In this document: in pieces, positions 2,212-17,639 of the stretch
How the letters are laid out: each line of letters begins with the position of its first letter
How positions within the stretch are numbered: the first letter of the stretch is position 1
Position numbers and translations under genes: made by a program
Assembly: GCF_024298765.1 (NCBI RefSeq)
Contig: NZ_CP101210.1
DNA length: 64,000 nucleotides
Reading direction: 5' to 3' (one strand)
Origin: Escherichia coli
Lineage (GTDB): Bacteria; Pseudomonadota; Gammaproteobacteria; Enterobacterales; Enterobacteriaceae
The notes under the pieces: model-generated
The model's database searches: none
The model's input: only the letters and a program-made list of their open reading frames with translations
Told to the model about the DNA's origin: nothing

Positions 2212-2422
2212 TTTCATATTGGCGAGGTAAAGGTAGTTAAGTAGAATGGCTGCGGGTGCTTGAGGCTATCTGCCTCGGGCATGAACACCAAAGGCAGATA
2301 GAGAAAAGCCCCAGTTAACATTACGCGTCCTGCAAGACGCTTAACATTAATCTGAGGCCAATTTCATGCTAGACACATGTAGGTTAGCCTCTTACGTGCC
2401 GGAAGGCAAGGAGAAGCAGGCT

Positions 2423-2578
2423 ATGAAGCAGCAAAAGGCGATGTTAATCGCCCTGATCGTCATCTGTTTAACCGTCATAGTGACGGCACTGGTAACGAGG
2501 AAAGACCTCTGCGAGGTACGAATCCGAACCGGCCAGACGGAGGTCGCTGTCTTCACAGCTTACGAACCTGAGGAGTAA
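2423..2578 (+). CDS. hokD: Hok-family type I toxin HokD (RelF)
   Basis: Translation MKQQKAMLIALIVICLTVIVTALVTRKDLCEVRIRTGQTEVAVFTAYEPEE matches HokD as I recall it; the track ORF 2366..2578 extends 19 codons upstream in frame. Confidence 0.8.
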   Translation: MKQQKAMLIALIVICLTVIVTALVTRKDLCEVRIRTGQTEVAVFTAYEPEE

Positions 2579-2646
2579 GAGACCCGGCGAGGGAGAAATC
2601 CCTCGCCACCTCTGATGTGGCAGGCATCCTCAACGCACCCGCACTT

Positions 2647-2678
2647 AACCCGCTTCGGCGGGTTTTTGTTTTTATTTT
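2647..2678 (+). terminator. intrinsic terminator downstream of hokD
   Basis: GC hairpin AACCCGC-TTCG-GCGGGTT followed by a T-run. Confidence 0.6.
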
Positions 2679-2794
2679 CAACGCGTTTGAAGTTCTGGAC
2701 GGTGCCGGAATAGAATCAAAAATACTTAAGTAGCGCGCAGGGATAAGAGGGATGGTCCCTTAAAGGGGAGAGCTAATTATCCGGAAGGATTCTG

Positions 2795-5340: not shown

Positions 5341-5883
5341 TGCTTTAAATGGGGCAATAGAGATATTGAATCTCATCCCGGGATAAACATTGGCAGTTGA
5401 AGGTCCACGCGAACCATTTATCCGGCAAAATTCCACGCGTAATCCTGTGGTAATTTCTTCTGCATCTCGAAGATTGAGAGCTGAAACGTGAAGCTGGGCA
5501 TCGATACGCCATCGGATGGGAATATAAGACCTTTGCTGCTTTTGTAGTCAAAGTTTTTGACAATTCCTGTCATTTTAGGGGACAGAAAAACTCCTTAATA
5601 CTGATAACCTGGTGCACCATACACACGTTCCTGGAGAAAACTACTTTTTTGATAGGGTTGAAGGTGGCTGGATGTCTAAAATAAACATTGCTTCATATGT
5701 TCAACTATGAGTTAATGACTGCGTCGGTTTGAAGAACAGACGATATACGAAGTAGTTTACTAAAGCAGTTCTCATTTCAGGTGTTATTCACTTATTCCTT
5801 CTTTGAGTCTCTCCAATTAAGTACGAAGTCGTTTCTGTTATGCAAACCATTTATGCCGAAAGGCTCAAGTTAAGGAATGTAGA

Positions 5884-6099
5884 ATGTCAAATAAAATGAC
5901 TGGTTTAGTAAAATGGTTTAACGCTGATAAAGGTTTCGGCTTTATTTCTCCTGTTGATGGTAGTAAAGATGTGTTTGTGCATTTTTCTGCGATTCAGAAT
6001 GATAATTATCGAACCTTATTTGAAGGTCAAAAGGTTACCTTCTCTATAGAGAGTGGTGCTAAAGGTCCTGCAGCAGTAAATGTCATCATTACTGATTAA
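5884..6099 (+). CDS. cspB: cold-shock protein CspB-like
   Basis: 71 aa [64 protein letters not shown]...; RNP-1-like KGFGFI motif; long upstream leader typical of csp genes. Confidence 0.8.
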
Positions 6100-6380
6100 A
6101 ATTCATCGCTCGTCTGTATACGATAACGAAGAAGGCTGATGCCTGAGTAGAGATACGGACAGAGTAGTGAATATTGGATCTCTTTAATAAAAAGTAAGGA
6201 GGTCCAATACATGAAACAATGGCCAGCATATTTGGCAAAATCTTAATCAGGAAAAGTATGCTAACCATTGTGGTGAAGTGCAGGTTTGCTGCATGAATAG
6301 TTTTACAGCAGAAGCTAACTGCTGGCATGGCAAAACAAAGTGCGTAAGTGGATGACTCCCACAAAAAGCACCACAATCTC

Positions 6381-15680: not shown

Positions 15681-17639
15681 ATGCAGGCTGGTCACCAGAG
15701 TGACGCGGATATTTATATTTATGACGAGATTGGTTTCTGGGGTGTTACAGCGAAGCAGTTTATCAGTGATCTGAATGCACTGGGCGATATCACCCACATT
15801 AATCTCCATATTAATTCACCGGGTGGCGATGTCTTTGAAGGCATCGCCATTTTTAATGCGCTGAAAACACATGGAGCGTCCATTACCGTTTATGTCGACG
15901 GTGTGGCGGCGTCAATGGCGTCGGTCATTGCGATGGTGGGAAACCCGGTCATTATGCCGGAAAACACTTTCATGATGATTCATAAACCATTTGGCTTTAC
16001 GGGCGGTGATGCGGAGGACATGCGCACCTATGCCGACCTGCTCGATAAAGTTGAGGCGGTTCTGTTACCCGCTTATGCACAGAAAACCGGGAAAACCACC
16101 GATGAAATTGCTGCCATGCTGGCGGATGAGACCTGGATGTCCGGTGCCGAATGTCTGGCACATGGATTTGCTGATCAGGTAACGCCAGCCGTTAAGGCAA
16201 TGGCATGTATTCAGTCAAAACGTACAGAGGAATTTAAAAAGATGCCGGAATCCATTCGAAACATGATTACTCCGCCACGCAACAGTGCTCCACGCGTACA
16301 GGATGATGAACCTGCAGCCTCCCGGACGCCAGTGCAGGCAGCAGCACCCGTGGTGGATGAAAACAGTATCCGTGCGCAGGTACTGGCAGAGCAAAAAGCG
16401 CGTGTAAACGGTATTAATGATCTGTTTGCCATGTTTGGCGGGCGTTATCAGACGCTGCAGGCTCAGTGTCTTGCCGATCCTGAATGTTCGCTGGAGCAGG
16501 CCCGCGAAAAGCTGTTGAACGAGATGGGGCGCGAGTCCACGCCATCCAATAAAAATACCCCGGCTCATATTTATGCCGGTAACGGTAATTTTGTGGGGGA
16601 CGGGATCCGCCAGGCGCTGATGGCGCGTGCCGGATTTGAAAAAACCGAACGTGATAATGTCTACAACGGGATGACCCTGCGTGAATATGCCCGTATGTCA
16701 CTGACTGAACGGGGTATTGGGGTTTCCAGTTATAACCCGATGCAGATGGTCGGTGCGGCGTTCACACACAGTACGTCTGACTTCGGTAATATTCTGCTGG
16801 ATGTTGCGAACAAAGCCATTCTGCAGGGCTGGGAAGATGCTCCTGAAACCTATGAACAGTGGACGCGGAAAGGTCAGTTGTCTGATTTTAAAATTGCCCA
16901 TCGTGTGGGTATGGGGGGCTTCAGTGCTCTGCGTCAGGTGCGTGAAGGGGCGGAATATAAATACGTCACCACCGGAGATAAACAGGCCACTATTGCACTG
17001 GCGACCTATGGCGAGCTGTTCAGTATCACCCGTCAGGCCATTATCAATGATGATCTGAATATGCTGACCGATGTCCCGATGAAGCTGGGCCGTGCGGCGA
17101 AATCCACCATTGCCGATCTGGTTTATGCCATTCTGACGTCTAACCCGAAAATCTCCACAGATAATGTAAGTCTGTTCGATAAAGCGAAACATGCAAACGT
17201 ACTGGAGAGCGCTGCAATGGACGTGGCATCGCTGGATAAAGCCCGCCAGTTGATGCGCGTTCAGAAAGAGGGGGAGCGTCATCTGAATATTCGTCCTGCG
17301 TTCGTACTGGTACCGACGGCGATGGAGTCTGTTGCTAACCAGGTCATTCGCTCCTCAAGTGTCAAGGGGGCTGACATTAACGCCGGTATTATTAACCCGG
17401 TGAAAGATTTTGCGACCGTTATTGCAGAGCCTCGTCTTGATGATAACAGCCAGACCACCTTCTACCTGGCTGCGTCCAAAGGCTCCGATACGATTGAAGT
17501 GGCTTATCTCAACGGTGTGGATACGCCATATATTGATCAGATGGAGGGCTTCAGTGTGGATGGCGTGACAACGAAAGTGCGTATTGACGCCGGTGTCGCG
17601 CCAGTTGATCACCGCGGTCTGGTGAAATGTACGGCGTAA
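15681..17639 (+). CDS. fused prohead protease (ClpP/S14-like), scaffold-like linker and major capsid protein
   Basis: About 652 aa; N-terminal region has ClpP-like motifs (INSPGGDV..., catalytic-Ser context GVAASMASVIA); C-terminal ~350 aa reads as a major capsid protein. Confidence 0.6.
   Translation: MQAGHQSDADIYIYDEIGFWGVTAKQFISDLNALGDITHINLHINSPGGDVFEGIAIFNALKTHGASITVYVDGVAASMASVIAMVGNPVIMPENTFMMIHKPFGFTGGDAEDMRTYADLLDKVEAVLLPAYAQKTGKTTDEIAAMLADETWMSGAECLAHGFADQVTPAVKAMACIQSKRTEEFKKMPESIRNMITPPRNSAPRVQDDEPAASRTPVQAAAPVVDENSIRAQVLAEQKARVNGINDLFAMFGGRYQTLQAQCLADPECSLEQAREKLLNEMGRESTPSNKNTPAHIYAGNGNFVGDGIRQALMARAGFEKTERDNVYNGMTLREYARMSLTERGIGVSSYNPMQMVGAAFTHSTSDFGNILLDVANKAILQGWEDAPETYEQWTRKGQLSDFKIAHRVGMGGFSALRQVREGAEYKYVTTGDKQATIALATYGELFSITRQAIINDDLNMLTDVPMKLGRAAKSTIADLVYAILTSNPKISTDNVSLFDKAKHANVLESAAMDVASLDKARQLMRVQKEGERHLNIRPAFVLVPTAMESVANQVIRSSSVKGADINAGIINPVKDFATVIAEPRLDDNSQTTFYLAASKGSDTIEVAYLNGVDTPYIDQMEGFSVDGVTTKVRIDAGVAPVDHRGLVKCTA

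Follow-up and report, generated by a model that had tools for sequence, protein, structure and literature searches.

A predicted complete hok/mok/sok module around hokD in a Qin-like prophage of Escherichia coli

In Escherichia coli K-12 the toxin gene hokD (relF) is the third gene of relBEF and is co-transcribed with relBE (PMC3598666). The locus described here carries hokD with no relBE beside it, and it raises the question of whether a toxin gene has been left behind by its operon at the end of a different cassette, or whether hokD stands here as a unit of its own. The original prediction for this DNA took the first view: it described hokD as retained without its relBE partners, placed it downstream of a different toxin cassette, and left open the promoter from which it might be expressed. 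The antitoxin of hok is the antisense RNA Sok, and relBE are not functional partners of hokD. We analysed a 64-kb stretch of DNA, referred to here as the window, the sequence of which is identical to that of E. coli strain 104 (NZ_CP029164.1). That record annotates a Qin-like lambdoid prophage here, with the gene order dicB, a cI/cro-like pair, YdaT, DUF977, a RelA/SpoT-domain protein, hokD, rem, ydfU, ydfT (Q), cspB and lysis genes, and no relB or relE is annotated.

The hokD gene and the break with K-12 relBEF

The hokD coding sequence lies at 2423-2578 on the plus strand (51 amino acids and a stop codon), behind a Shine-Dalgarno (SD) sequence AGGAG at 2409-2413, and is annotated in RefSeq as HokD. 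Its product matches the Pfam family HOK_GEF (PF01848) with E = 3e-23 at a cutoff of 22 bits, and in pairwise alignment the DNA is identical base for base to K-12 hokD; the gene is intact, as predicted. Codon Tyr47 is found within a UACG sequence at 2561-2564. This is the site at which TadA is reported to edit A to I, changing Tyr into Cys, in the mRNAs of hokC, hokD and hokE (PMC12214031), and it is conserved here. Two further features of the original prediction were borne out. The 70-codon open reading frame at 2366-2578 ends in the 51 codons of hokD, and its first 19 codons form an in-frame upstream extension of exactly the length and frame proposed. Furthermore, a terminator scan found an intrinsic terminator of the hok transcript at 2647-2674 on the plus strand, in which a run of T follows a GC-rich hairpin (2647-2664).

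The lack of relBE upstream also stood. When K-12 RelB and RelE were used as tblastn queries against the whole 64-kb window at E values up to 10, no relB or relE homologue was found and the best match had E = 0.094 over 31 amino acids. Because this search gave chance matches only, we reject the possibility that relBE is present in the window and was overlooked.

Where the two sequences part was located by pairwise alignment to K-12 relBEF, which breaks at 2408/2409. To the right, from 2409 to beyond 2800, the window follows K-12 MG1655 through hokD and its downstream region with a single mismatch at 2590; the likeness takes in the coding sequence, the 3' UTR, the terminator and, beyond these, rem-ydfU-ydfT(Q)-cspB. 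On the left side of the break the K-12 sequence is the 3' end of relE, and relBE occupies the region beyond, whereas the window has none; relB and relE are thus not directly upstream of hokD here, as membership of relBEF would entail. Megablast sets the same boundary 14 nt before the hokD ATG. Since K-12 shares sequence with the window from 2409 onward only, the relE-hokD junction of K-12 is the truncated form. K-12 is without the hok promoter, the mok start, sok (most of the sok -35 element included) and the RNA elements tac, ucb and dcb, all of which are discussed below. As relBE stands in K-12 where hok has its own leader here, K-12 hokD is transcribed from the relB promoter.

It is at this point that the framing of the original prediction has to be reversed. 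The whole hok leader, mok, the Sok gene and the 3' element fbi are present in the window, and it is K-12 that has the cut-down form. According to PMC12214031, which cites a 1999 survey of chromosomal hok genes, the hok loci of K-12 except hokB are inactivated, either through IS elements (in the case of hokA, hokC and hokE) or through rearrangements that remove canonical components; on that account, K-12 relBEF as a truncated form of hokD is already in the literature.

Leader frame, antisense gene and predicted RNA switch

The predicted answer to the question of the promoter is that hokD has one of its own. A promoter scan places a putative mok-hok promoter at 2219-2247 on the plus strand (-35 TTGGCG at 2219-2224, a 17-nt spacer and -10 TAGAAT at 2242-2247), and the -10 element is kept across eight aligned hok loci, K-12 hokC included. 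The promoter, which is sigma-70-like, ends 7 nt upstream of GGGUGCUUGAGG, the conserved 5' end of the mRNA, from which we infer that transcription would start at the G at about 2254. The leader at 2254-2428 on the plus strand scores 117.1 bits (E = 6.5e-27) with Rfam RF01794 'sok', whose gathering score is 59. As the match is on the sense strand and spans GGGUGCUUGAGG through to the hok AUG, it covers the hok mRNA leader. Weak Rfam matches below their gathering scores, namely minus-strand 'sok' at 2170-2312 (20 bits), isrK, ceN48 and rnk, were treated as chance or partial resemblance.

Within the leader, a conserved SD sequence GAGG at 2354-2357 on the plus strand precedes an ATG at 2366 by 8 nt. 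The frame that opens there (2366-2578, plus strand, 70 codons in total) gives hokD its 19-codon N-terminal extension, which comparison with related loci identifies as the mok leader frame. K-12 annotation provides the closest model: mokC (16751..16960) and hokC (16751..16903) share a stop, and they differ by 57 nt, so that mokC is a 19-codon in-frame extension of hokC, while sokC (16952..17010) runs on the opposite strand across the mokC start. Among eight aligned loci of the hokD/hokC type, six have the 19-codon in-frame ATG extension behind a GAGG SD; K-12 hokC and the O157-like locus preserve the frame because a 1-nt deletion in them is offset by an insertion of 1 nt. In two plasmid copies, which carry the insertion alone, mok is therefore out of frame, as in R1. 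Apart from K-12 mokC and sokC, neither the mok frame nor the Sok RNA is annotated in the RefSeq records that were examined.

At the sequence level, an antisense Sok gene lies opposite the mok start. The predicted gene, at about 2374 to 2298 on the minus strand, would yield an RNA of about 77 nt composed of a 5' single-stranded tail, a long hairpin and then GGGGCUUUUCUCU. Both ends were placed by aligning minus strand 2425-2280 with the annotated K-12 sokC region, and the alignment takes in the promoter and the terminator with its U-rich end; the RNA finishes in the conserved GGGGCUUUUCUCU. The RNA is predicted to fold with -30.6 kcal/mol (z = -4.3). It is 77 nt long, compared with 59 nt for SokC, because its hairpin has an 18-nt GC-rich insertion. 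A putative sok promoter was read from the sequence at 2409-2381 on the minus strand (-35 TTGCCT at 2409..2404, a 17-nt spacer and -10 TAACCT at 2386..2381). This region is conserved with the sequence upstream of K-12 sokC; its -10 is weak, and the promoter fell below the threshold of the consensus promoter scan. A literature search under the name 'sokD' returned unrelated papers only.

The remaining elements are those of an RNA switch; what the analysis shows are these elements, their homology and the alternative pairings predicted between them. The 5' end of the hok mRNA, GGGUGCUUGAGG (2254-2265, plus strand), is the tac element. The fbi element CCUCAACGCACCC (2628-2640, plus strand) is complementary to it, with a duplex energy of -21.5 kcal/mol. 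Between them lie ucb, an anti-SD box AAGCCCC (2306-2312, plus strand), and dcb, GCCUC (2387-2391, plus strand). The minimum-free-energy fold of the predicted full-length mRNA (2254-2668) has -175 kcal/mol, with z = -8.3 relative to shuffles. In this fold 2254-2265 is paired with 2628-2640 (tac/fbi) at a pairing probability of about 1, and the mok SD at 2354-2357 is masked by pairing with 2308-2312 of ucb. When the RNA is truncated in silico at 2625, ViennaRNA folds of 2254-2625 show a different arrangement, in which 2254-2261 pairs with 2306-2312 (tac/ucb) and 2354-2358 with 2387-2391 (SD/dcb); on truncation at 2610 the refolding is less clean. A stable 3' hairpin, GGCGAGGGAGAAAUCCCUCGCC (2586-2607, plus strand), is in these models likely to be the protective end of the processed mRNA. 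The tac/fbi/ucb/dcb scheme has been described for R1 hok, and the refolding modelled here is exactly that scheme (PMC9841398).

Comparison with other hok loci places the window locus more closely. K-12 hokC/mokC/sokC (gef) is of the same subtype, with a 19-codon in-frame mok and Sok over the mok start. The two share about 76% DNA identity across leader and coding sequence, and the promoter, 5' end and SD boxes are conserved. They differ in that the Sok hairpin of the window has the extra 18 nt and in that IS186 parts hokC from fbi just after the 3' hairpin, whereas the window locus is uninterrupted. The R1 hok/sok (parB) locus and related IncF loci also have tac, ucb, a mok SD, dcb, fbi and an antisense Sok, with the same predicted refolding. 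In contrast to the window locus, however, they have mok out of frame with hok, a Hok of 52 amino acids and a plasmid rather than a prophage as their carrier. Their tac and fbi differ by compensatory changes (GGCGC:GCGCC versus GGGUGC:GCACCC): the hokD type pairs 5' GGGUGCUUGAGG with 3' CCUCAACGCACCC and the R1 type pairs 5' GGCGCUUGAGGC with 3' GCCUGAAGCGCC, so that complementarity is maintained by different bases. Duplex energies of the R1-type loci are -20 to -23 kcal/mol in three of four cases and -14.7 kcal/mol in Salmonella pCFSAN029843_1. As tac and fbi are nearly invariant within the hokD subtype, the covariation is drawn entirely from the R1-type comparison.

Several observations on the ends of hok loci were made in the course of these comparisons. 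IS186/IS421 is inserted at one common point, just after the hok 3' hairpin and between …GGGGAGAAATCCC and ATAAGCGCTAACTTAAGGG, in K-12 hokC, strain PK8568 and plasmid p2018-11-1BCC_1, which makes this point a recurrent insertion hot spot. In the loci compared, the junctions lie at 370-450 in L003 and at about 760-800 in L008 and L009, and the insertion cuts fbi off from the rest of the locus. Two IncF plasmid hok loci, L012 (Serratia) and L013 (Klebsiella), are without the 5' tac motif GGCGCUUGAGG of the other R1-type loci; L012 has an annotated DUF5431 (Mok) frame, and both loci may be 5'-truncated or otherwise organised. In the window, the hok 3' UTR at 2587-2668, comprising hairpin, fbi and terminator, gives a sub-threshold match to the Rfam family IsrK (25.7 bits, gathering score 50, E = 0.022). 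IsrK is a Salmonella island sRNA, and the resemblance could reflect a hok-derived origin of IsrK, or chance.

Frequency of the module and its upstream neighbours

To set the window locus against the species, we counted the 440-bp module 2235-2674 in 5426 complete E. coli genomes, accepting matches that covered at least 80% of it. Leader and coding sequence are present in 4025 of these genomes, a figure that refers to leader plus coding sequence and not to strictly intact loci, as it includes loci cut by IS186/IS421 at the 3' hairpin (about 83% covered). In an evenly spaced sample of the module matches, 18 of 25 rows cover at least 98%. The K-12 relE-hokD junction was found in 1166 of the 5426 genomes, and from 4025 versus 1166 it follows that the full module without relBE is the common state. 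Conservation of the hok module is 95-100% across most complete E. coli genomes.

The locus is an ordinary complete copy of the well-known hok/sok system, and nothing has been lost here. The system is already known in its usual form. What we add are the positions of mok, sok and the structural elements, which were unannotated, together with a count that makes the K-12 arrangement the minority: the textbook relBEF is a minority, truncated form, and the window shows the full hokD module. This will be of use to those annotating type I toxin-antitoxin loci in prophages or working with K-12 hokD as a model, and means little beyond correct annotation.

The module lies in the part of the Qin-like lambdoid prophage bounded by the replication genes and the Q antiterminator, and its left neighbour sits in a slot whose content varies by genome while the 440 bp remain constant. 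In the window the neighbour is a RelA/SpoT-domain gene at 663-1688 on the plus strand, in K-12 it is relBE, and other genomes carry a 340-aa hypothetical protein, paa, QueH, a methyltransferase pair or a DUF4145 protein. The hok locus is not the third gene of the upstream cassette. The 341-aa product of 663-1688 matches Pfam RelA_SpoT (E = 4e-18) and, over its full length (residues 6-338 against 15-370, E = 2.6e-34), PDB 7ZTB, a structure deposited with the paper on CapRel SJ46, an anti-phage system in which toxin and antitoxin are fused (PMC9712102). A match with E = 5e-119 was also obtained to PDC-S33, one of the candidate defence families in PADLOC. Judged by these matches, it resembles a CapRel-like fused toxSAS. 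The original prediction was therefore right that a different toxin-type gene lies upstream; however, this gene is about 530 nt from the hok module and there is no sign that its function is linked to hokD.

Directly upstream of the hok promoter there is a further module, of 315 bp (1921-2235), which is present in 1758 of the 5426 complete genomes, has no annotated feature in any of 25 sampled records, and is also found without hokD (locus L005). In its predicted fold it does not stand out from shuffled sequence (z = +0.46). It contains a 29-codon hydrophobic open reading frame, MLVLKCALAITAVMAIYCLAIVLMDRLSD, at 2122-2211 on the plus strand, with a GTG start and an SD sequence AGGAGG at 2111-2116, which ends 8 nt before the hok -35 element. 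This frame is intact in five diverged copies, with changes that are mostly synonymous or conservative, and may encode an undescribed small membrane protein. Searches of Pfam, NCBIfam and PADLOC with the open reading frames 2004-2207 and 2119-2211 gave no match. Identity of the small upstream frame with K-12 YnfS was considered and rejected by comparison.

Proposed mechanism and alternative explanations

Taking these observations together, we believe it highly probable that 2219-2674 forms a complete type I module, hok/mok/sok, which belongs to the hokD/hokC (gef) subtype, is self-contained and works as R1 does. In the model that we propose, the processing site, the two promoters and the ends of both RNAs are predictions, and the order of events is taken over from R1. 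First, the module's own promoter would give an mRNA of about 415 nt, which would be inert because fbi clamps tac and ucb covers the mok SD. As the 3' end is slowly trimmed, fbi would be lost, and the mRNA would refold to the tac/ucb and SD/dcb pairings, becoming both translatable and a target for Sok. Short-lived Sok, transcribed from a promoter of its own within the mok region, would pair with the mok start region and lead to decay of the mRNA. Once the supply of Sok stops, through loss of the element or a shut-off of transcription, ribosomes would initiate at the mok AUG. As mok is in frame here, the product would be either a 70-aa extended Hok or, if the hok SD is opened, the 51-aa HokD, and HokD would depolarise the inner membrane. 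By analogy, transcription, processing and killing would follow the R1 pattern, and the biological role may be prophage maintenance or phage exclusion. The relB-relE-hokD arrangement of K-12 would be a derived truncation from which the promoter, tac, ucb, the mok start, dcb and sok were removed.

A locus of complete architecture could nevertheless be functionally silent, a transcribed and repressed relic that causes no killing or stabilisation. A bioRxiv survey notes that post-segregational killing was not mediated by any of three hok loci from chromosomes that had been tested before, namely hokA of E. coli C, hokB of K-12 and hokC of ECOR24; intact architecture is therefore no proof of activity. 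The predicted sok -10 and hok -35 elements, moreover, are weak compared with consensus. However, we consider silence unlikely, given that all the known regulatory elements are present and mutually compatible, that a module conserved at 95-100% in most genomes keeps its mok frame even via compensating indels, and that in the same survey the HokD coding sequence was toxic on expression.

Far less probable, in our view, is that hokD is a leftover third operon gene which depends on transcription from the CapRel-like gene or from the frame at 2122-2211. These two and hok do lie on one strand, co-transcription with relBE is documented for hokD in K-12 (PMC3598666), and the terminator scan gave no convincing terminator between 2211 and hok, so that read-through into hok is possible. 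Yet an RNA that read-through had lengthened at its 5' end would be unable to close the terminal tac/fbi clamp in like manner, and hok has a predicted promoter of its own together with the conserved 5' end that this pairing needs. The distance of about 530 nt from the CapRel-like gene and the occurrence of the same 440 bp beside many unrelated left neighbours likewise argue against dependence, and for the self-contained module.

A further suggestion, which we think improbable, is that hokD travels with a second, undescribed small-protein module, the 1921-2235 region, and, separately, that the 70-aa long form of HokD has an activity of its own. If this were true, the product of 2122-2211 could be either a small membrane toxin of a new kind or a modulator, acting with hokD and the CapRel-like gene as a prophage defence islet. 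Further along the same prophage, 5723-6146 gives a strong match to the Rfam cspA thermoregulator (158.9 bits), which extends over the leader and coding sequence of the cold-shock gene cspB.
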